DNA of 53,100 nt from an uncultured Oscillospiraceae bacterium. Its GTDB lineage: Bacteria; Bacillota; Clostridia; Oscillospirales; QAMX01. The translations under genes and the position numbers were made by a program. A model generated the notes under the pieces. The model was given only the letters and a program-made list of their open reading frames with translations, made no database searches and had not been told where the DNA came from. Shown here piece after piece: positions 8,987 through 20,074 of the stretch. The first letter of the stretch is position 1, and the number at the start of each line of letters is the position of its first letter. The stretch lies in assembly GCA_964439435.1 (NCBI GenBank), contig CAYTOF010000003.1, positions 1 through 53,100 of the forward strand, in the 5' to 3' direction.

Positions 8987-9008
8987 GCTTAATAGTGATA
9001 AGGAACTA
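8987..9008. repeat. attL: GC core + arm ttaatagtgataaggaacta
   Basis: arm 8989-9008 is the reverse complement (18/20) of 20053-20072. Confidence 0.8.
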
Positions 9009-9051: not shown

Positions 9052-9095
9052 AAAAGTCCGTCCGACTTCCTAATAGGAGGTTTGGACGGACTTTT
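9052..9095. terminator. bidirectional hairpin near the element's left end
   Basis: aaaagtccgtcc/ggacggactttt 12-bp stem with inner pairing and T tracts on both strands. Confidence 0.65.
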
Positions 9096-9281
9096 GCTGT
9101 TTTATGATGAATATGGACAATTCCTACCCCTAGTTTTTCTAACGTTCAGGAGCATTTTTCTAACGGGTAATTTATTCGACTATGTGGAGTCATTTTGGCT
9201 ATTTATCACCTGAAGACTATGAAAAGCAGATCTCTTTAGCGTAACTCCATGTCCGCAGGGGCGGGCGGGAGAGGGTCGTTA

Positions 9282-11072
9282 TTACTCATAATATGAGGCT
9301 TGCATTAGATACATTTGCGCGTATAATCCGTTTAAATCCATTAATTCTTGATGCGTCCCGTACTCTTTTAACATGCCGCTGTCGATAACTATTATTTTGT
9401 CGCAGAACTTTGCGCTTGACAGCCTGTGGGAAATATAAAACGCGGTTTTATCGCCGATTAAACCATTAAATTGTTTATACAGCAAATATTCTGCGCGAGG
9501 GTCTAACGCCGAAGTCGGCTCGTCTAACACCGTAATAAAAGTATTATCTTTAAAATAGGCCCTTGCAATAGCCAGCTTCTGCTGTTCACCGCCTGACAGC
9601 TCAACGCCGTTTTCATCAAACAGTTTAAATAAATATGTATCATATTGCTCCGGCAATTCTGTTATCCTGTTATGAATGCTGGCTTTTTCCGCCGCTATCG
9701 TGATATTGGTTTTATCTGCATTCGTTAGTGATGTGATGTTTTCACCCATCGTAAACGCAAAGAGCTGAAAATCCTGAAAAACCGACGAAAATACGGATAA
9801 ATATTCGTTGTATTTTATTTCTTTTATGTTTACGGAATTGAATAAAATTTCACCGTCAACCGGGTCGTACAGTCGCATTAACAGTTTAATAAAAGTGCTT
9901 TTTCCCGCACCGTTTTCTCCAACGATAGATATTTTTTCACCCTTGCGGATTTTTACATTGAAATTATTCAGCGCATATTCAGACTGCCCCGGATATTTAA
10001 ACGACACGTTATTGAACTCGATTGTATAGTCGTCCTCTTTGTCGATGTTCAAAGGTCTAACCTCGGTTTTTTCGAATTTATTTTCAAGCCCCATAAAATC
10101 AAGGTAATATTTTATATATCTTATCGAATCCGAATAGGACAAGAGTGTGCTTGAAATTTGCCCAAGCGAGCTTCTTAACAACCCTATAGTGCCAATGGCA
10201 AGCGAAAAGGAACCGAGGGAAAAATCTTTAAATATAACGCTGTATCCCAATAAAATGTACACCGAAAATTGTATAAGATTTTGCAGGAAGCCGGTAATCA
10301 ATCCGTTGAAATCGGAGTAAGTCTTTTTCTTCTTGAATATTTTATTTATCTCAATAAATGCAGATTTTATCTTTTTTCCAATTTTTCCGCCCATATCAAA
10401 GATTCGAATATCTTTGCCGTATGTAAAATCGGAAGCTGTTCCGTTGAAATAATTTATTTCGCGCTGCCTTTTTATTAATTCTTCATCTTTCGGGCGATTC
10501 AATTTAATAAAGATAGCGCTGATAACAGAATTGATGATGATGCCGCCGACCGTTACCGCAATTACGAGAGGATTAATGGCCGCCAATATGACAATCGCGC
10601 TGATTAATAAAATAACATTGGAAAATACAGCTATAAAACTCCAAACCGTATTATTAAATCGAAATGACACAAACTCCCGCGCCAAGTCTTTTAATTCAAG
10701 CGTTTCTTTTTCTGCCAATAATTCATAATCAAGCTCCATGCATTTTTTATAAAAATCCGCCGTAAGTCGTCCTTGCGTTAAACCGCCTCTGCTGATCCTG
10801 ATATTATCGTTAAAATATGTTTTCAGAATGTTGGTTAATAAAACCAAAGCCAATATTCCGATAACAATCATGGCATAATCGGAAAACGGCTCTTCGTTTG
10901 TCAAAGCGTCGAACGTATATTTTACAAGTATCAACGGTGGATATGCCAACAAAGTAAACGAAAGCATTTCGCCTACCGTCATCAACATATAGACTTTATC
11001 TACTCGCCATAAAATCCTGAACAGCGCCGGTATATATGAAAAATAAACTAATAATTGTTTTATCTGCTTCAT
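9282..11072 (-). CDS. ABC exporter, fused TMD-NBD (heterodimer subunit 2)
   Basis: N-terminal hydrophobic helices; GENGAGKST, LSGGEQQK, LDEPTSALD. Confidence 0.93.
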   Translation of the reverse strand: MKQIKQLLVYFSYIPALFRILWRVDKVYMLMTVGEMLSFTLLAYPPLILVKYTFDALTNEEPFSDYAMIVIGILALVLLTNILKTYFNDNIRISRGGLTQGRLTADFYKKCMELDYELLAEKETLELKDLAREFVSFRFNNTVWSFIAVFSNVILLISAIVILAAINPLVIAVTVGGIIINSVISAIFIKLNRPKDEELIKRQREINYFNGTASDFTYGKDIRIFDMGGKIGKKIKSAFIEINKIFKKKKTYSDFNGLITGFLQNLIQFSVYILLGYSVIFKDFSLGSFSLAIGTIGLLRSSLGQISSTLLSYSDSIRYIKYYLDFMGLENKFEKTEVRPLNIDKEDDYTIEFNNVSFKYPGQSEYALNNFNVKIRKGEKISIVGENGAGKSTFIKLLMRLYDPVDGEILFNSVNIKEIKYNEYLSVFSSVFQDFQLFAFTMGENITSLTNADKTNITIAAEKASIHNRITELPEQYDTYLFKLFDENGVELSGGEQQKLAIARAYFKDNTFITVLDEPTSALDPRAEYLLYKQFNGLIGDKTAFYISHRLSSAKFCDKIIVIDSGMLKEYGTHQELMDLNGLYAQMYLMQASYYE

Positions 11073-12889
11073 ACAGCGCCCTCCGTTGTTCTTCGGTATA
11101 AATCAGCCTGCATTGTGTATAATTCTTTATATAATCCGTCTTTTGAAATCAATTCATTGTGAGAGCCGTATTCGGTTATTTCGCCTTTATCGAAAACCGC
11201 GATACAGTCGCAGAATTTTGAACTTGACAACCGATGGGAAATATATATCGACGTTTTATTTTTTGATATTTTATTGAAGCTGTCATATACCTCAAATTCG
11301 GCGCGGGGGTCAAGCGCGGCCGTCGGCTCGTCCAATACAATGATGGGAGCGTCCTTATACACCGCTCTCGCGATGGCGAGCCTCTGCATCTCGCCGCCGG
11401 AAAACTCTACGCCTTTCTCGTCAAATATACGATATAAAGACGTATTTTCAGCCATATCCAAAGAAGAAATTCTTTCTTTCATCTTTGACATAGAAATCGC
11501 CTTTGTTATCAGATTTTCATTGTATTCGCTTTCCATCGCCGCGATATTTTCTTTTAGCGTCAGCGCAAGCAGTTTGTAATCCTGGAACACCGCGGAAAAT
11601 AACTTATTATATGACGAGCGGGTATATTCGGATATATCAACGCCGTCAATCAAGATCCTGCCCGACGTCGGCTTATACAGCCCCATGAGCAATTTAATAA
11701 ACGTGGTTTTACCCGCGCCGTTCTCGCCGACAATCAAAAGAGCCTGTCCCAAACGGATTGTTATAGTAACATTGTGTAATGCGTATGTATCGCTGTTCGG
11801 ATACTTAAACGAAACATTTTCAAATACTATTTCATGATTTCTTGTAATATTCAAATCTGCTTTGTTTGCAACATCAGATAAATATTCTTGTTTGTGTTTG
11901 AAGAAATCAAAGAACGCTTCCAAATAATCCGTGTTTACCGCGAATTCCACGAGATTATATACTAAATTGCTTATCCTGTTCCTTATTTCTCTCAAAGCAT
12001 TTCCGATTAACGTAAACTCTCCGACTGTGATGTGATGCAAAGCCAATACTTCATACCCTAAATATAGGTAAATCCCCGCTTCAAGAATTATATCTGCCAA
12101 ATAGAACAAAAGCATGGAAAATCCGATTATTTTAGTTGCCTTTTTTACTCTCGTTTTAAAGAGAACGGCTTGGAGCTCTTTCATTCGGTTATATAATTTA
12201 TCTTTCAAATTAAACAGGTGTATTTCTTTTGCATAAGAAAAACTTTGCGCTATATCGTATATATAATTAACCTTTCTGATGGTTTCCGTCCTCAATTTAC
12301 TGTCAAAATATTGGCCTTTCGCATTTTTATAATCGTAATATATTCTGCATATCAATGAAATTATAAGCGGAACGATAATTACTATGCTTATGGAAGATAA
12401 GATGTATATTGTGCCCGACAGTACAAGCACGCCGGAAATAAGTCCGGCAATGCTGTTTATAACCGATTCGAGTTTTCCTTGGTTCAACGCTTCCAACGTA
12501 AAGTCTTTTTTCTCTAAAAATTCCTTCTCGCCGATTAATTTATATTCAACATTCATGCAAACATCGGATATCTCATAATTTATCTGCGATTGTATAATAT
12601 TTCGATAATAACCTATCCTGTTATTGATTAAACTGTTTGCGATATTCAGTAAAAACATTATACCGAGTATGACAGAAATGGCAATGATATATTCCGTTAT
12701 ACTGCCTTTTCGGGTTAAGATATCAACTGAGTATTTTATAAGATACATACCCGGAAAAACCTGTACCGAACCCACGACAATATTAACAAAAATCAATATG
12801 ACATAAGCGGGATTTTTCCGCCAAAGAAAAGCAAGACTTTTACCCGAATATTTTATTATGTTTTTTATATTCGATAATATTTTTTTCAT
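11069..12889 (-). CDS. ABC exporter, fused TMD-NBD (heterodimer subunit 1)
   Basis: GENGAGKTT, FSGGEMQR, LDEPTAALD; 4-bp overlap with the next gene. Confidence 0.93.
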   Translation of the reverse strand: MKKILSNIKNIIKYSGKSLAFLWRKNPAYVILIFVNIVVGSVQVFPGMYLIKYSVDILTRKGSITEYIIAISVILGIMFLLNIANSLINNRIGYYRNIIQSQINYEISDVCMNVEYKLIGEKEFLEKKDFTLEALNQGKLESVINSIAGLISGVLVLSGTIYILSSISIVIIVPLIISLICRIYYDYKNAKGQYFDSKLRTETIRKVNYIYDIAQSFSYAKEIHLFNLKDKLYNRMKELQAVLFKTRVKKATKIIGFSMLLFYLADIILEAGIYLYLGYEVLALHHITVGEFTLIGNALREIRNRISNLVYNLVEFAVNTDYLEAFFDFFKHKQEYLSDVANKADLNITRNHEIVFENVSFKYPNSDTYALHNVTITIRLGQALLIVGENGAGKTTFIKLLMGLYKPTSGRILIDGVDISEYTRSSYNKLFSAVFQDYKLLALTLKENIAAMESEYNENLITKAISMSKMKERISSLDMAENTSLYRIFDEKGVEFSGGEMQRLAIARAVYKDAPIIVLDEPTAALDPRAEFEVYDSFNKISKNKTSIYISHRLSSSKFCDCIAVFDKGEITEYGSHNELISKDGLYKELYTMQADLYRRTTEGAV

Positions 12890-12898
12890 AAACGCACC

Positions 12899-14452
12899 TT
12901 ACAATTTAAAAAACATACCGTCATCATGTTCGACTAATACGTTACATACGCTGTCAGGAGAAATTTTTATCTTTCCTGATGTTGTCCATTCACCGATAAC
13001 TTTCTTTAGAAGCGTAAAAAATATGTTTGGATACATTCCCCCTGCTTTATATCTTAAATGTTTAGGGAACAATTTTATAAATCCGTCAGAATATTTTTTT
13101 ACCTGCCGTTGATACAATGGTATAATATCTTCGAAAATGCCGGGCAGCGTTTCTTTGAATCGGTTATACTGTGCGATGGGAAAAAATGGTACGTTAAGTT
13201 CAGCTTTATCTCCGATATTTTTTAAGAAGCCGTTTTTAATTGCTGTTGCCGCAAATTCTTTTTCATTGTCGCTTATATTGTCGCTTTTTATTATTTTTTC
13301 ACAAACTGCGAGTTCATCTTTACGCATTGAATTTATATTTTCAAACGGCGGAAAAACAAATACAATATGACCAATTGTGTGATGTTCCGTATCTATGTAA
13401 TTTCTATTGTCAAAAAAGAATACATTTTTATAATCGTCGGTTCGCGCATAAAATTCCCATTTCCAGCCGTCAAATCTTTCGGGAGTGTTTCGCAATTCGA
13501 ATTTATTATTATACCTTTCATTAAAATGGTCAAAAGCCATAATACAGAACAAACACATTAATTCGTCATAGCTTTTATTTGCCGTGAATATATCAAGTTC
13601 CAATGTCTTTACCGTAAATTTATTTGCTCTTTCCAACAAAATATCGGATATGGATTTTATACATTCTTTTGATTGGATATAATCGTACTTGTTGATTGAT
13701 TCGTCATAAATAATAATGTCGGATAAAATTGTATTTTGCGTAGGTTGTATTATTGTGCCGCATTTTAACAACATTTCGATTCTGTCCTCGATATAATACG
13801 CGGGAACACCTAATATTTTTGATAAATCCTCAACGCTTCTCGCTTCTTTATATACTTGCCAAAGTATGTTTTGCGACAGCGCGTCATTAAGATACATTCG
13901 CGGGATTCCGGCGTATGAACCGTCTGTGTATAGATTCAATTTTATCGGCTTCAATGCTGTTTCCTGCATAATATCAAACTCCTTTTTCAATTTTTCCCGC
14001 CCGATTGACAAGCGGTATTTTATTGTGCCCTCCGGGATATTCAACCGTTCGGCTATTTCTCGGCTTGTCAGATTGTCATAATAGTGCATTACGATAATGT
14101 CGCGATAGCAAGCGGATAACTGCGTTATGTTTTTTCTTAATGTATCGTAAAGTTCGTTTTGCTCAAAATCATATTCGTCATTATACGGTTGTTCGTCAAG
14201 ATCGTCTGACGAATACATCTCCCGTTCTCTGCCTCTGTTTCGGCTAAAAGATTTCAGGGTATTATTGGCTACACCCCACAACCATGCCTCGAATTTATCT
14301 ATATCTTTTATTGCCGTTATGGTTTTCGCCGCTTGCAATAAAATCTCTTGCGCCAATTCTTCCGCTTCCTCACGTGAGTATGTGCGGCGTTGCGAAAATG
14401 AAAAGATTTTATTTATATATTTTACAAGAATTTCGTTATCCATTTTTTCCAC
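12899..14452 (-). CDS. ECF (sigma-24-type) sigma factor with a C-terminal extension of about 350 aa
   Basis: region 2 (AEELAQEI..FEAWLWGVANN) and region 4 (LTSREIAERLNIPEGTIKYRL) in the first ~160 aa of 517 aa. Confidence 0.88.
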   Translation of the reverse strand: MEKMDNEILVKYINKIFSFSQRRTYSREEAEELAQEILLQAAKTITAIKDIDKFEAWLWGVANNTLKSFSRNRGREREMYSSDDLDEQPYNDEYDFEQNELYDTLRKNITQLSACYRDIIVMHYYDNLTSREIAERLNIPEGTIKYRLSIGREKLKKEFDIMQETALKPIKLNLYTDGSYAGIPRMYLNDALSQNILWQVYKEARSVEDLSKILGVPAYYIEDRIEMLLKCGTIIQPTQNTILSDIIIYDESINKYDYIQSKECIKSISDILLERANKFTVKTLELDIFTANKSYDELMCLFCIMAFDHFNERYNNKFELRNTPERFDGWKWEFYARTDDYKNVFFFDNRNYIDTEHHTIGHIVFVFPPFENINSMRKDELAVCEKIIKSDNISDNEKEFAATAIKNGFLKNIGDKAELNVPFFPIAQYNRFKETLPGIFEDIIPLYQRQVKKYSDGFIKLFPKHLRYKAGGMYPNIFFTLLKKVIGEWTTSGKIKISPDSVCNVLVEHDDGMFFKL

Positions 14453-14534
14453 CTCATATATATCAGTGAGAGTTTTTCCGTTTTAGTTGGGATTTTTTCG
14501 ATTATTCAAAACAAATTTTGTCTTGTTATCAAAT

Positions 14535-14563
14535 ATTTTACCATAAAATAATTAGGGAATCTA
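14535..14563 (-). promoter_or_regulatory. sigma-A-like promoter of the ECF-ABC operon
   Basis: minus strand TAGATT-17-TAAAAT with TG extension. Confidence 0.45.
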
Positions 14564-14647
14564 AAAATAATTTTGTTTGGTTCTCTCCGTTGTTCCTGCG
14601 ACGCCGAACACCTCCGGCTGCGCGGACTTGCTTTGTGCCTTTGGCAT
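14561..14647 (-). CDS. 28-aa small ORF MPKAQSKSAQPEVFGVAGTTERTKQNYF (peptide or truncated gene)
   Basis: strong RBS GGAGGTGAATCT-ATG; below the 60-aa ORF-track cutoff. Confidence 0.4.
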   Translation of the reverse strand: MPKAQSKSAQPEVFGVAGTTERTKQNYF

Positions 14648-14764
14648 AGATTCACCTCCATAAAAATAGCCGCAGCTCTCACTGCGGCATATAAAAAAGC
14701 GCCTACCTTTCGATAGACGCTTCTTCGCGGATTTACTGTTAATGTTTGTTATCGGTCGGATAAT

Positions 14765-16084
14765 TTACTCAGAAAGCAACCACTCGACCACATTCTGCGA
14801 CTGAATGCCGTCGTAGGAGGTGTCCAGTCCCGTGTCGAGCGAGAGCACCAGCTTCTCGTAATTGTCGCGGATTTTTTGGAGAGGAGCCAGCTCGCGGCGT
14901 CGGACATCCTCGCTTGTCATGGACTCCGTCACCTGAATATACAGCTTCCTTTCCGCATCGGTGGCGATGAAATCGACCTCGACATTGTCAATCTTTCCGA
15001 TTGCCACATCGTAGCCACGGCGCAGCAGCTCGAAATAAACAACGTTCTCCAGCGCGTGACCGCTGTCTCTGTTGCGAAAGCCCAGCAGGTAATTTCGAAG
15101 CCCGATATCTACAATATAATACTTGCCGAGTGTGCGCAGGTATTCTTTGCCCTTGATATCAAATCGCTTAATGTCGTAGAAGAAATAGCTCTCCAACAGG
15201 GCGTTCACATACGCCTGAACCGTGTGGGCGCTGGGTGAGCCCTTCCGTTTACCGTCCTCAAGCAGCCCCTCGTTTACAAGGGTGTTACCGATAGACGCAA
15301 TCGAGACATTGCTTCCGATGTTGTCCGCGAGGAACAGGATGATTTTGCGAAGCAGTACAGGGTCAGTGATGCGCTGCTGACCTCGACGTTTCTCCCGCTC
15401 TAAAATATCCCGGATGACGACGGTGGAATAAATACCATCAAGCAGGATCAGCGCCTTCTCTTGATTCAGTCCTACGTCAGCTATGCCCGGCATCCCGCCA
15501 AAGCGGAGATAGGAGTCAAAGGCTTCTCTTAGGTCGTAGCGTTCGCCGCTCTTGTCATAGACCTGTTTTCTTATGCCACCTAAGGCGCTCTGCGTTTCCC
15601 TCACTTCGAAGTCATGGAAATACAGAAACTCATTAAAAGACAGAGGCAGCATTTTGATCTCTATGCTTCTGCCGGAGAGGTAGGTCGAATACTCCGACGA
15701 AAGCAGATACGCGTTGGAGCCGGTGATATAGATATCGCAGTTGAAATCAACGCGGAAGGAATTCACCGCCTCCTCCCAGGCGTCGATTCTCTGTAGCTCA
15801 TCGAAAAACAGATACATACGTTTTCCGAGCAGAACGCGCTGCTTCACATAGTTGTAAAGCATATCCGAGGTCATGTCCTTGAAATCGTGAGACTCGAAAT
15901 TCATCTCAACGATCTGATCCTCGGAGATGCCGCTTTCCTTCAGGTGCAGCATCATCAGCTTCAGCAGGCTGGACTTTCCGCAACGGCGGATGCCCGTCAC
16001 CACCTTGACAGGTTCCGTGTCCTGAAAAGCGATGAGTTTATTCAAATACAATTCTCGTTTTTTAAGTTCATGTGATTCTATCAT
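14765..16084 (-). CDS. AAA_14 ATPase with C-terminal DUF4143 (PD-(D/E)xK-like) domain
   Basis: GIRRCGKS Walker A, FFDELQ Walker B, ITGSNA, LENVVY, EVDFIA..IQVT. Confidence 0.9.
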   Translation of the reverse strand: MIESHELKKRELYLNKLIAFQDTEPVKVVTGIRRCGKSSLLKLMMLHLKESGISEDQIVEMNFESHDFKDMTSDMLYNYVKQRVLLGKRMYLFFDELQRIDAWEEAVNSFRVDFNCDIYITGSNAYLLSSEYSTYLSGRSIEIKMLPLSFNEFLYFHDFEVRETQSALGGIRKQVYDKSGERYDLREAFDSYLRFGGMPGIADVGLNQEKALILLDGIYSTVVIRDILEREKRRGQQRITDPVLLRKIILFLADNIGSNVSIASIGNTLVNEGLLEDGKRKGSPSAHTVQAYVNALLESYFFYDIKRFDIKGKEYLRTLGKYYIVDIGLRNYLLGFRNRDSGHALENVVYFELLRRGYDVAIGKIDNVEVDFIATDAERKLYIQVTESMTSEDVRRRELAPLQKIRDNYEKLVLSLDTGLDTSYDGIQSQNVVEWLLSE

Positions 16085-16462: not shown

Positions 16463-16642
16463 TCATACATCGGCCCATGCATCAGGAGCAAGGTAAACGC
16501 CGTGAGAAACGCGCTCATATTCTTTTGCAGCCACATATTTTGAAAGTATGTACTTTGAAATACCCGCTCCCAGTACGGCCGCCGTAGTTAAAACACCGCC
16601 ACTTGCTTCTGTCATCTGATCAAGTAGTTCAAACTGGCTCAT
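16463..16642 (-). pseudogene. truncated AbiEi (type IV TA antitoxin) N-terminal fragment
   Basis: MSQFELLDQMTEASGGVLTTAAVLGAGISK..YERVSHGVYLAPDAWAD then stop; no AbiEii toxin ORF follows. Confidence 0.7.
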
Positions 16643-16661
16643 GTGCATCATCCCCTTTTAC

Positions 16662-17725: not shown

Positions 17726-17917
17726 GTGCAAACGCTCAACATCGAGGGAAATCCTTGGTTTGTATCCGTTGATGTTTGCGCCGCTCTCGGCGTTTCCCGC
17801 ACTGCTGTAAGACAATTGGACGAAGACGAAAAGGGTGTGCATTCAACGCACACCCTTGGTGGAACCCAGAAGATTGCCGTTGTAAATGAATGTAGTGCAC
17901 CGTCCCACAGAGCATAG
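17726..17917 (+). pseudogene. Bro-N (phage antirepressor-type) domain fragment
   Basis: IEGNPWFVSVDVCAALG..LDEDEKGVHSTHTLGGTQKIAVVNE is the Bro-N pattern; truncated at 63 aa. Confidence 0.75.
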
Positions 17918-18255: not shown

Positions 18256-18353
18256 AGAGGGGGCTTCCATTCATGACAAATACAAAAAATTATGTTAATA
18301 TACAACCATGCACACCGATTCTGTCAGCTGACCCAACTGAAAAGGAGGATACT

Positions 18354-20021
18354 ATGTTGGATCAGCAGAAAATTACCATCATCTATTGTCGCCTGTCCGT
18401 GGAGGACATCAAAGAGGACTCCAAGGGTGGCAAAGCTGACGAATCAAATTCAATACAGAATCAAAAAGAGTATTTAACCCGATATGCAAGAGAGCAGGGA
18501 TACACTAATCTGAAAATACTGGTGGACGACGGCTATACCGGAACAAACTTCAATCGTCCCGGCGTACAGGAGGGATGCGAGCTTGTAAAGCAAGGACTTG
18601 TGGGATGCTGGCTGTGCAAAGACCTTTCCCGTTTTGGACGTGACTATCTGACCGTTGGGCAGTACACGGACATCATCTTCCCCAGCTACGATGTACGATT
18701 TATCGCCGTCAATGACGGGGTGGACAGTGAGCGCGGCGATGGCGAGGGTATGGCTGCAATCCGCAATCTGTTCAACGAATGGTACCCGCGGGATACCAGC
18801 AAGAAAGTCCGTGTCAGCCTCCGTCAGCGTGGCACCAGCGGCAAGCACATGGGCAAGCCGCCCTACGGATACCGCTGCGACTCAGAGGACAAAGAGTTCT
18901 GGGCACTGGACGAGGAAGCTGCCCCGGTGGTCAAGTACATCTTCGACCTCAGTATTGACGGAAAAGGGCCGGAACAGATTGCCCGGATTTTGGAACAGGA
19001 GCAGGTGTTGACCGCCAAAGCCCTGTATGCCAAACAGAAAGGCAAGCCTCTCCCGGAAAGACCGTACCATTGGATCGGACAGTCTGTGGTGGGTATTCTG
19101 GAACGGCAGGAGTACACCGGCTGTACTTGCAACTTCAAAACCTACTCCAAGTCCTACAAGCTGAAAAAGCGGATTCCAAATGCCCCGGTGGATATGTATA
19201 TCATCCCCGACACGCAGGACGCAATCGTACCGCAGGCTCAATGGGACAGAGTACAAGAGCTGCGAAAAAACAAACGCCGCCCCGCTAAAGCGGAACGGCA
19301 GGGTTTTTTCTCCGGGCTTCTGTTCTGTGCCGATTGCGGCGGCAAGCTCCATTTTGCCACCAGCAAGAGCTTTGAGGGCAGACAAGACCGCTATGTATGC
19401 AAGCATTACAAGAGCAACCGCGGTACTTGCACCGCCCACTACATCCGGGAGGATGTGCTGCGGGATATGGTACTGGAACGGATACAGGCAGTGAATGAAT
19501 ATATCCGTGACGATGTCGAGGGCTTTCAGGAGGAATGGCTGCGTTGCCGCAGAACTGACCGGGAGAAGAATATCCGTGAGGACAAAAAGCGGCTGGAGCA
19601 GGCGAAGAAACGCCTTGCAGACTTGGATGTGCTCATACCCCGGCTCTATGAGGATTCCGTCCTTGGTAATCTGAGCATGGACAGATACAAGAAGCTGTCC
19701 GCAGATTATGAAGCAGAACAGGAACGGTTAAAACTCGAAATTGAAGTAACGGAAGAATGGGTAGAACAGCAGGAGGAAATGAACGATAATCTGGACGTGT
19801 TCATTTCCTTGACCCGTAAGTATGTGGATGCGGAGGAACTGACACAGACGATTGTAAATGAGTATATCAAGAAAATCGTGGTGTTCGCCCCCGACAAGTC
19901 CAGCGGAAAGCGGCAGCAGAAAATCCAGATTTATTTCAACTTCGTGGATGAGCTTGATATTCCTGTCATTTCTGACCCGGTGATTACAGAAACAACCTAT
20001 GGACGCAGAAAAACGGCGTGA
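18354..20021 (+). CDS. large serine recombinase (resolvase + recombinase + Zn ribbon + coiled coil, DUF4368-type C-terminus)
   Basis: IYCRLS catalytic Ser, DDGYTG, KDLSRFGR, PYGY, CADCG..C..C; RBS aaggagg before ATG at 18354. Confidence 0.95.
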   Translation: MLDQQKITIIYCRLSVEDIKEDSKGGKADESNSIQNQKEYLTRYAREQGYTNLKILVDDGYTGTNFNRPGVQEGCELVKQGLVGCWLCKDLSRFGRDYLTVGQYTDIIFPSYDVRFIAVNDGVDSERGDGEGMAAIRNLFNEWYPRDTSKKVRVSLRQRGTSGKHMGKPPYGYRCDSEDKEFWALDEEAAPVVKYIFDLSIDGKGPEQIARILEQEQVLTAKALYAKQKGKPLPERPYHWIGQSVVGILERQEYTGCTCNFKTYSKSYKLKKRIPNAPVDMYIIPDTQDAIVPQAQWDRVQELRKNKRRPAKAERQGFFSGLLFCADCGGKLHFATSKSFEGRQDRYVCKHYKSNRGTCTAHYIREDVLRDMVLERIQAVNEYIRDDVEGFQEEWLRCRRTDREKNIREDKKRLEQAKKRLADLDVLIPRLYEDSVLGNLSMDRYKKLSADYEAEQERLKLEIEVTEEWVEQQEEMNDNLDVFISLTRKYVDAEELTQTIVNEYIKKIVVFAPDKSSGKRQQKIQIYFNFVDELDIPVISDPVITETTYGRRKTA

Positions 20022-20052: not shown

Positions 20053-20074
20053 TAGTTACTTGTCACTATTAAGC
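20053..20074. repeat. attR: arm tagttacttgtcactattaa + GC core
   Basis: inverted 18/20 match to 8989-9008, 32 bp after the recombinase stop. Confidence 0.8.

Follow-up and report, generated by a model that had tools for sequence, protein, structure and literature searches.

Several groups of extracytoplasmic function (ECF) sigma factors carry fused C-terminal extensions that replace anti-sigma factors (PMC7826278, PMC8999054), and most ECF sigma factors autoregulate through a promoter in front of their own gene (PMC7826278). ECF31 and the Firmicutes group ECF258 carry separate anti-sigma factors, YxlC/YxlD and DUF4179, respectively (PMC7826278). Sigma factors with fused extensions are viewed as the counterparts of one-component systems; studies cover only a few types of extension, and do not include any in gut Clostridia. 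Here, we analysed the first 53,100 nucleotides (nt) of contig CAYTOF010000003.1 (assembly GCA_964439435.1) of an uncultured Oscillospiraceae bacterium, referred to below as the window, which contain an operon composed of a gene for an ECF-type sigma factor with a long C-terminal tail and of two genes for ATP-binding cassette (ABC) half-exporters, ABC-A and ABC-B. The explanation that we prefer, with a probability slightly above one half (about 0.55), is that the promoter, sigma, ABC-A and ABC-B form a horizontally transferred operon, in which a self-activating tailed sigma factor drives the pump, and the tail serves as a regulator that is additionally made as a nested free protein.

Three minus-strand open reading frames (ORFs) fill positions 9282-14452 of the window. 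Their layout agrees with that in an original prediction made for this locus: 9 nt separate the sigma stop codon from the ATG of ABC-A, and the two ABC genes overlap. The ribosome-binding site AAGGTG straddles the sigma stop, the ABC-A/ABC-B overlap is ATGA, and GGAGG precedes the ABC-B start. An operon terminator scan flagged no terminator between the three genes. As a separate promoter or terminator for the ABC genes would not fit into the 9-nt gap, these genes, which would be co-transcribed with the sigma gene, are its only predicted output here. Nothing that we found points to the ABC genes escaping the control of the sigma factor, which had been presumed in the original prediction. The window ORFs and domain scans revealed no separate gene for an anti-sigma factor or a modifying enzyme within or beside the operon, also as predicted, with a caveat concerning the tail that is given below. 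The block had been described as A/T-rich as well, and its GC content is 36.5%, as compared to 45.6% genome-wide; it stays at 0.33-0.40 over 9.5-14.5 kb and is 0.45-0.50 on either side.

The promoter and the three genes make up a 5.26-kb unit that is 81% identical at the DNA level to two other loci, L081 and L083. The homology starts at 14548 (L081) or 14519 (L083), 70-100 nt upstream of the sigma start, and ends at 9279-9283, at the ABC-B stop codon. Because these sharp borders are shared across contexts, we conclude that the unit has moved between lineages. Altogether, it was found in four independent contexts, namely in the window, L081, L083 and L136, with the gene order kept also in the fourth. 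The flanks of the unit in L081 and L083 have a GC content of 0.35-0.37, like the unit itself, which is an outlier in the window genome. The presence of a 5.26-kb block elsewhere, its low GC content and its location on a recombinase element bounded by inverted repeats (Table 1) are all in accordance with the idea of a mobile cargo operon. An orphan sigma cassette might have landed by chance in front of an unrelated ABC pair, with the pump being expressed independently, as most members of this sigma family are orphan cassettes in variable contexts, and as sigma70-like hexamers can be found inside the sigma gene (e.g., 13533-13505). We consider such a juxtaposition very improbable. Sequences resembling sigma70-type promoters are no more frequent within the operon than expected by chance (25 versus 23.7), and across the 9-nt gap the ribosome-binding site lies over the sigma stop. 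Moreover, the three genes move jointly, with sharp shared borders, and are intact in all four contexts, while an amino-acid identity of 76-86% between the copies (76-78% for sigma, 84% for ABC-A as compared to L081 and L083, and 84-86% for ABC-B) indicates purifying selection.

The sigma gene is preceded by a promoter-like sequence that is common to its family. The family consensus, (A)CCCAAY-N17-CACTTTATA, is located just 5' of the ribosome-binding site in about 90 family members. The pattern [C/T]CCAA[T/C]-N17 (rarely N16)-CACTTTA is present in 54 of 59 upstream regions, at a fixed distance to the conserved ribosome-binding site GAAAGGCAGGTGA, and the consensus derived from 82 non-redundant sites is TTTTTnAAAAnnACCCAATGAAA-N-(G)CACTTTATA, with TTTTTnAAAA upstream of the -35 sequence being weakly conserved across the family. 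When 1.14 Mb of fetched loci were scanned on both strands with a position weight matrix (PWM), each of the 92 matches of at least 18 bits was directly 5' of a family sigma frame, in the sense orientation, and about 35 of these loci were outside the training set. Independently of the PWM, 9 out of 10 whole genomes from family members were seen to contain a single exact copy of CCCARY-N16/17-CACTTTAT, which is located at the sigma gene. In the tenth, there are two extra exact matches, of which the one examined lies in a stretch with prephenate-dehydratase and shikimate-pathway ORFs. Motifs with one mismatch were not in excess over the reversed-pattern control in those genomes (25 versus 18). In the 2.19-Mb genome of the window, the strict motif occurs once, at 14461-14491, and a regulon search with the PWM and strict patterns in this genome and 10 others revealed no targets besides the sigma gene. 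The regulon of the sigma factor in the window genome would thus be its own operon. The -10 variant follows the sigma phylogeny: it is CACTATATA in the subclade of the window (a T-to-A change) and CACTTTATA elsewhere, while the window itself has CACTGATATA, with one G more, at 14464, than all three closest relatives. The self-promoter proposed originally, ccaact-N14-ctcact, overlaps this family-wide motif, for which CCCAAC-N17-CACTGATATA is a better parse.

Since autoregulation is the rule for ECF sigma factors (PMC7826278), we infer that the sigma factor reads the conserved promoter in front of its own gene, which would result in positive autoregulation. Alternatively, the promoter could serve the housekeeping sigma, together with an activator or a repressor, or a different alternative sigma, and the tailed sigma could have its own targets elsewhere, with a different motif. 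A purely self-directed sigma factor makes little sense in the orphans, and the conservation reaches the 5' untranslated region and the ribosome-binding site, as if the whole 5' region was inherited as a block and not maintained through recognition by the sigma factor. However, in very different genomes the motif is confined to the front of this sigma family, and its variants track the phylogeny of the sigma factor, which, together with the prevalence of autoregulation among ECF sigma factors, makes a foreign reader of this promoter quite improbable in our view. Additionally, the motif is unlike the known promoters of the Bacillota sigma factors A, B, D, E, F, G, H, K, L or I.

The sigma core of the protein is typical of ECF sigma factors. 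It scores 86.6 bits on NCBIfam TIGR02937 (sigma70-ECF), with a cut-off of 42.9, and it has sigma2 and sigma4 but no sigma3, as is characteristic of the ECF (group 4) superfamily; a short, disordered linker of 30 residues stands in place of sigma3. The NCBIfam equivalog and subfamily models (SigW, SigM, SigZ, SigY and others) all have cut-offs far above its scores. Translation probably starts from the ATG at 14443-14441, which gives 514 amino acids (aa), and not from GTG 14452, which gives 517 aa, because this GTG sits within GAGGTGG, the ribosome-binding site, the relatives begin with MDNE or MNNE, and the database copy is 514 aa long. The original prediction of an ECF sigma factor with a fused tail of about 350 aa holds, but its length of 517 aa does not, and the tail, described as mostly soluble, is entirely so: the whole protein has no hydrophobic segment (maximum Kyte-Doolittle value in a 19-residue window, 0.92).

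The tail differs from the extensions that define the ECF groups with which it was compared. It does not contain the SnoaL-like NTF2 extension (about 100-150 aa) of ECF41, ECF56, ECF294 and ECF295, as judged from the lack of a SnoaL match in Pfam at E up to 1, and the structural match to SigG1 (7qh5) is via the sigma core only. The TPR extension (about 200 aa) of ECF42 is also missing, as there is no TPR match in Pfam, and the model contains beta-sheets and no helical repeat. The short Cys-rich extension of the CorE-like groups ECF238, ECF287 and ECF288 has no counterpart in a tail of 350 aa, in which one cysteine, C503, is invariant and one, C384, near-invariant. No transmembrane segment that would correspond to the 5-7 helices of ECF263 and no DUF1835 match that would indicate ECF264 were found. 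In the SigI-like class, SigI-C and RsgI would be expected, whereas here canonical sigma4 matches in Pfam and no RsgI-like neighbour were seen. In the literature searched, we found no characterised ECF group with such a tail; a group of this kind with known regulation would have spoken against the original prediction.

Pfam and NCBIfam searches with residues 160-517 gave no match even at E up to 1. Structure models, which had been suggested originally, revealed a winged helix only and left the distal part of the tail unmatched. In the AlphaFold2 model of the full protein (predicted local distance difference test, pLDDT, 81.6; predicted template modelling score, pTM, 0.64), sigma2 and the tail are confident, and their mutual placement is uncertain. 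The tail modelled alone, with 44 sequences, forms a compact fold (pLDDT 91.7, pTM 0.87). A Foldseek search of the PDB with the tail retrieved only winged helices of the ArsR/SmtB type, over about 60 aa and with a root-mean-square deviation of about 2.2 A (probability up to 1.00, E about 0.1-0.4); the remaining 270 residues or so had no PDB match better than E 0.05, and the whole model gave only sigma-core and generic winged-helix matches. A profile of the distal domain retrieved nothing from the PDB sequences. Among 1.84 billion cluster representatives, an exhaustive search with a hidden Markov model retrieved no more than 166 with this domain; in the full-length matches (about 500-550 aa) it occupies approximately residues 250-515, as in the sigma fusions, and most of the other matches are shorter. 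The winged helix has a median net charge of -4 and an invariant Glu in its 'recognition' helix. Because it is acidic, DNA binding is unlikely, and the domain would rather be a protein-docking adaptor than a DNA reader. The window genome has a single copy of the sigma gene, and 40 related genomes have no close homologue but distant relatives at most. In many of the latter, which are encoded by ORFs of 526-992 aa, the similarity is confined to residues 1 to about 250. This fits a constant head, made of sigma and the adaptor, with variable distal parts.

The border between sigma4 and the tail appeared to be constrained beyond the protein sequence. Met162 is invariant in the family and is preceded by AAAAAGGAG and a variable spacer of 9 nt in virtually every gene. 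The Lys-Lys-Glu codons at this site are AAA in 71 of 74 genes, AAG (K157) in 74 of 74 and GAG (E158) in 74 of 74, whereas other invariant Lys or Glu columns of the same genes mix codons (GAG 31 and GAA 47 in PEGT; AAA 19 and AAG 37 in FPKH). Moreover, a Shine-Dalgarno-like motif is present 5-16 nt before the junction ATG in 77 of 79 genes, as compared to 7% of other internal Met codons. Clearly, there is a constraint at the nucleotide level at this border. It suggests that the tail is also translated alone, as a free protein starting at Met162. Nested in-frame regulators made by internal initiation are exemplified by the Tn5 transposase and its inhibitor and by CheA-L and CheA-S. By analogy with the Tn5 inhibitor protein, we favour the possibility that the free tail acts in trans as a brake or a partner of the fusion. 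It could thereby play the role of an anti-sigma factor, which is the caveat to be kept in mind when the operon is said to lack one. No description of a nested in-frame product of a sigma factor was found in the literature searched. As to stand-alone tail genes, the candidates (matches of 280-366 aa) begin at the junction Met and come mostly from very short contigs, and one of them clusters at 90% identity with a 518-aa fusion; we did not accept them as evidence.

To place the operon among its relatives, a word-indexed search was used, which retrieved over 530 full-length relatives with a size of about 515 aa, all of them from Clostridia where the source names the organism (Lachnospiraceae, Christensenellales, Defluviitaleaceae and Cellulosilyticaceae). 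With one genome scanned per species, the family is encoded by 214 GTDB species, again all Clostridia. The protein is conserved over its full length, with the invariant residues clustering where sigma4 meets the tail and in the 90 tail residues that come first (M162, L167, P169, G178, P184, D190, A191, N195-L197, Y201, G215, P217 and E222); those of the distal part are D328, G329, W332, F462, P463, C503 and L506. Of the 214 GTDB loci, 80, with sigma factors 35-42% identical to that of the window, were fetched for neighbourhood work. All-against-all clustering of their 902 flanking ORFs revealed no recurrent neighbour gene family. The gene downstream of sigma is often convergent, and ABC exporter pairs lie within 7 kb in few of the loci. 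As no gene family accompanies the sigma gene in these 80 loci, the link to ABC genes is not a trait of the family.

The link does hold among close relatives, and a count of co-occurrence with ABC pairs, proposed with the original prediction, confirmed it only in part. At 74% identity or more, i.e., in the window, P0005 (78%), P0006 (76%) and P0008 (74%), two ABC half-exporters follow the sigma gene in 4 of 4 cases, in unrelated neighbourhoods. No transporter follows it at 63-67% identity (P0010, P0012 and P0015). At 55% (P0016 and P0017), the sigma gene is divergent from a gene for a tet-type ribosomal-protection GTPase, after which a two-component system is encoded. An ABC pair after sigma was thus found in 0 of 5 cases at 55-67% identity, and adjacent downstream in 0 of the 80 loci at 35-42%.

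This distribution bears directly on the proposal that the tail binds the compound (a drug or peptide) exported by the ABC pair and thereby releases the activity of the sigma factor, which would make the operon a substrate-induced efflux or resistance unit. The tight operon coupling is kept in all four contexts, the 55% clade adjoins resistance-type genes (for the tet-type GTPase, an APH-family kinase, the two-component system and a BceAB-type ABC transporter), and in L083 the pump genes are followed by VanZ-like and thioredoxin-like ones, all of which would suit such a unit. However, hundreds of orphan sigma factors with no transporter nearby possess the same tail, including D328, G329, W332, F462, P463 and C503. 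As the architecture of the tail predates and far outnumbers the link to ABC genes, the tail did not evolve as a sensor of the ABC substrate. Foldseek recognised no ligand-binding fold in it, and the ABC sequences, with all NCBIfam scores below cut-off, give no clue to a substrate. We do not favour substrate binding by the tail, and consider it unlikely.

The neighbourhoods mentioned above have some further features. In the 55% clade (L085 5780-7804 and L098 2835-5833), the tet-type GTPase scores 508.6 bits on NF012153, below the cut-off of 775 bits. The gene for the APH-family kinase is also present in L098. Both L085 and L098 have an OmpR/histidine-kinase pair, next to which the BceAB-type ABC genes are located in L085, while the record of L098 stops behind the kinase gene. 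In neither locus is a copy of the family promoter directed towards the resistance-type genes. In L083, the genes for the VanZ-like membrane protein and the thioredoxin-like (PedC-like) protein lie at 13213-14820, after the sigma-ABC unit and outside its conserved part, and suggest a theme related to the cell envelope or to peptides. A second neighbourhood of sigma and ABC genes, with another order, was seen in an Acetatifactor metagenome-assembled genome (L016 2-6929). There, an ABC pair 48-49% identical to that of the window is followed on the same strand by a gene for a 562-aa sigma factor, which belongs to another tail family; next come an AAA-ATPase/PD-(D/E)XK gene and a sigma gene of the present family.

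Both ABC proteins are fused half-transporters of the MsbA/ABCB-like type, with a transmembrane domain (TMD) and a nucleotide-binding domain (NBD). The Pfam domain ABC_tran is present in both and ABC_membrane in ABC-B, while in ABC-A the alignment with the MsbA model spans residues 13-594. The NBD motifs are VLDEPTAALD, SHRLSS and FSGGE in ABC-A, and VLDEPTSALD, SHRLSS and LSGGE in ABC-B, each with a canonical Walker A, Q-loop, SGGE signature, Walker B D-E and H-loop His. A degenerate ATP site is typical of the heterodimeric exporters of the BmrCD/TM287-288 group, in which the catalytic Glu or His is missing from one NBD and the signature of the partner deviates. Here, neither site is degenerate, since the Walker B Glu, the H-loop His and SGGE are present in each NBD. 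All NCBIfam transporter models gave scores below cut-off, the top one being MsbA (235 versus 602 bits), and none of the named equivalogs (Tet(46), SmdAB, CydCD, HlyB, NHLP exporters and others) was reached. The best relatives in the PDB are exporters of the ABCB and MsbA types. Among 399 genomes of the class, no ABC orthologue was found at E <=1e-120, a weak negative, with three candidates scored per genome. The pump looks like an ordinary exporter.

Taken together, these results are best explained by the self-activating operon proposed at the outset. The sigma factor would read its own promoter, and the ABC genes would be transcribed along with it. The tail would be a regulatory or sensing module that acts in place of an anti-sigma factor, and the free tail would provide negative feedback by braking or partnering the fusion in trans, with a cytoplasmic cue sensed by the distal domain shifting the balance between them. 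In most members of the family the cassette would end after sigma, whereas the clade of at least 74% identity would have captured a heterodimeric ABC exporter. The result would be a self-contained, inducible export or resistance module, brought to the window on a serine-recombinase element. The notion of a sensor sigma that induces efflux is retained in this explanation as far as the fused tail, the self-promoter, the co-transcription of the pump genes and the mobility are concerned, but not as regards the binding of the substrate by the tail.

Several points weigh against this explanation. That the sigma factor reads the conserved promoter is deduced from their co-occurrence, some of the sites scored with the PWM had also served to train it, and the family sequences are phylogenetically related, so that binomial p-values calculated for the internal start overstate their independence. 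The promoter of the window scores just 3.7 bits on the family matrix, and the extra G at 14464 may weaken or retune it in this copy. It is odd that a sigma factor should have no target but its own gene, which is the situation in the orphans, the majority of the family, and this hints that the real output of the family is something outside the present data. Finally, none of the short distal-domain matches was confirmed as a stand-alone tail gene.

More tentatively, the whole cassette can be seen as a portable switch written in one frame, in which a fusion of sigma and sensor comes with its own free regulator and with its own promoter as the sole target. Any gene located downstream would then become inducible, insulated and host-independent cargo, and mobile elements of gut Clostridia would use such switches as plug-in modules; this is a possibility that we would not rank above doubtful. 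Within this very large and so far uncharacterised family, the locus lends itself to experiments, as its promoter is predicted at base resolution, its pump can be assayed and its nested product can be tested. If the explanation is true, the locus provides a new regulatory extension fold, a new way to encode the regulator of a sigma factor, i.e., within the sigma gene itself, and, for the synthetic biology of anaerobes, a sigma/promoter pair that is orthogonal by nature, and it shows mobile elements delivering self-regulated export or resistance functions across genera.

The operon lies in an 11.1-kb element that is bounded by 22-nt inverted repeats and encodes a large serine recombinase at its right end (Table 1); glpK begins 107 nt past the right repeat. 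A gene for an AAA_14/DUF4143 ATPase adjoins the operon (14765-16084, minus strand). Its product matches the PADLOC candidate PDC-S01 over the full length (E 3e-149), and it has its own terminator at 14669-14688. This terminator is separated from the upstream limit of the sigma module by 120 GC-rich nt, in which there is a 28-codon ORF (14561-14647, minus strand; MPKAQSKSAQPEVFGVAGTTERTKQNYF) that has a good ribosome-binding site, GGAGGTG, but lies outside the conserved unit and has no Pfam match. Just 3' of the ABC-B stop, on the opposite strand (9164-9241, plus), the sequence RVIYSTMWSHFGYLSPEDYEKQISLA* is encoded, which is too short for Pfam; it looks like the C-terminal end of an IS3/rve-type transposase, and could be a remnant of the arrival of the module. 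The 16-18.2 kb part of the element contains mostly decayed mobile-element genes, including fragments of an AbiEi antitoxin N-terminus (16466-16657, minus) and of Bro-N (17726-17914, plus), both with a Pfam E of about 1e-6. No known RNAs or tRNAs were found at the element. The possible terminator hairpin after the operon was noticed by eye; it was missed by the terminator scan because its loop exceeds 8 nt. A plasmid origin was considered and rejected, as there was no full-length relative among 72,556 plasmids, and so was the reading of the three genes as a defence system, for which PADLOC yielded only generic ATPase and HTH noise.

Table 1. Positions of the operon, its signals and the surrounding element in the window.
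Feature	Position	Strand	Basis
ECF-type sigma factor with fused tail	12899-14443 from ATG (12899-14452 if GTG is used)	minus	ORF list, domains
Sigma region 2	14228-14422	minus	Pfam PF04542, residues 11-75
Sigma region 4	13982-14128	minus	Pfam PF08281/PF04545, residues 109-157
Ribosome-binding site of sigma, GAGGTGG	14449-14455	minus	Sequence, alignment with relatives
-35-like CCCAAC	14486-14491	minus	Family consensus (A)CCCAAY
-10-like CACTGATATA	14459-14468	minus	17 nt past -35
A/T-rich upstream stretch, kept in relatives; 5' edge of the transferable unit	14492-14548	minus	DNA homology, alignment
Internal Shine-Dalgarno AAGGAG, coded by K157 and E158 of sigma4	13979-13984	minus	Sequence, codon fixation
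Predicted in-frame free tail, 356 aa, from Met162 (ATG 13969-13967)	12899-13969	minus	Inference from synonymous-site conservation
Acidic winged-helix domain, residues ~190-250; most conserved part of the tail	13703-13885	minus	AlphaFold2 and Foldseek
Distal tail domain, ~267 aa, alpha/beta, no known relative	12902-13702	minus	Model; Pfam, NCBIfam and PDB searches
ABC half-exporter A, 606 aa	11069-12889	minus	TMD-NBD; canonical Walker A/B, signature, H-loop
ABC half-exporter B, 596 aa; the unit ends (3') with its stop codon	9282-11072	minus	TMD-NBD, canonical motifs
Possible terminator hairpin (AAAAGTCCGTCC ... GGACGGACTTTT) after the operon	9052-9095	minus	By eye; outside the conserved unit
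Left 22-nt terminal inverted repeat of the 11.1-kb element (pair I4)	8987-9008		91% complementary to 20053-20074
Right terminal inverted repeat	20053-20074		91% complementary to the left repeat
Large serine recombinase, right end of the element	18273-20021	plus	Pfam Resolvase, Recombinase, Zn_ribbon_recom, DUF4368

The transporter of the SigY operon is composed of a separate ATPase and permease, whereas that of the window is a pair of fused TMD-NBD half-exporters, encoded without an anti-sigma gene. Despite these differences, the operon resembles sigY-yxlCDEFG of Bacillus subtilis (ECF31) and ECF258 in that an autoregulated ECF sigma gene, here a predicted one, is located in or next to an ABC operon (PMC7826278). 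The pump genes are like those of the heterodimeric exporters BmrCD, LmrCD, EfrCD, PatAB and TM287/288 of Bacillota and Thermotoga, i.e., two adjacent, translationally coupled genes for MsbA/ABCB-like TMD-NBD proteins of about 600 aa. In contrast to the BmrCD-type exporters, the pair in the window has no degenerate ATP site and appears to be controlled by a fused-tail sigma factor of the same operon, and not by attenuation or a repressor. With Tn5 and CheA, the sigma gene would share the use of one frame, in which an internal Shine-Dalgarno sequence and ATG lead to a full-length protein and an N-terminally truncated modulator, although here the nested product is predicted solely from the conservation of synonymous sites. 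The closest likeness is to the ECF sigma factors with fused C-terminal extensions, with which the sigma factor of the window shares a sigma2-sigma4 core, the lack of an adjacent anti-sigma gene, a soluble fused module that presumably controls its activity, and a putative autoregulatory promoter. It differs from them in its 350-aa tail, made of an acidic winged helix and an unmatched alpha/beta domain, in having no SnoaL, TPR, Cys-rich motif, DUF1835 or transmembrane helices, in the predicted internal start for a free tail, and in the restriction of its family to Clostridia. What makes it unusual among ECF sigma factors with an extension is the combination of an unmatched tail fold, a genome-unique promoter, a probable nested regulator and an apparently captured ABC exporter.

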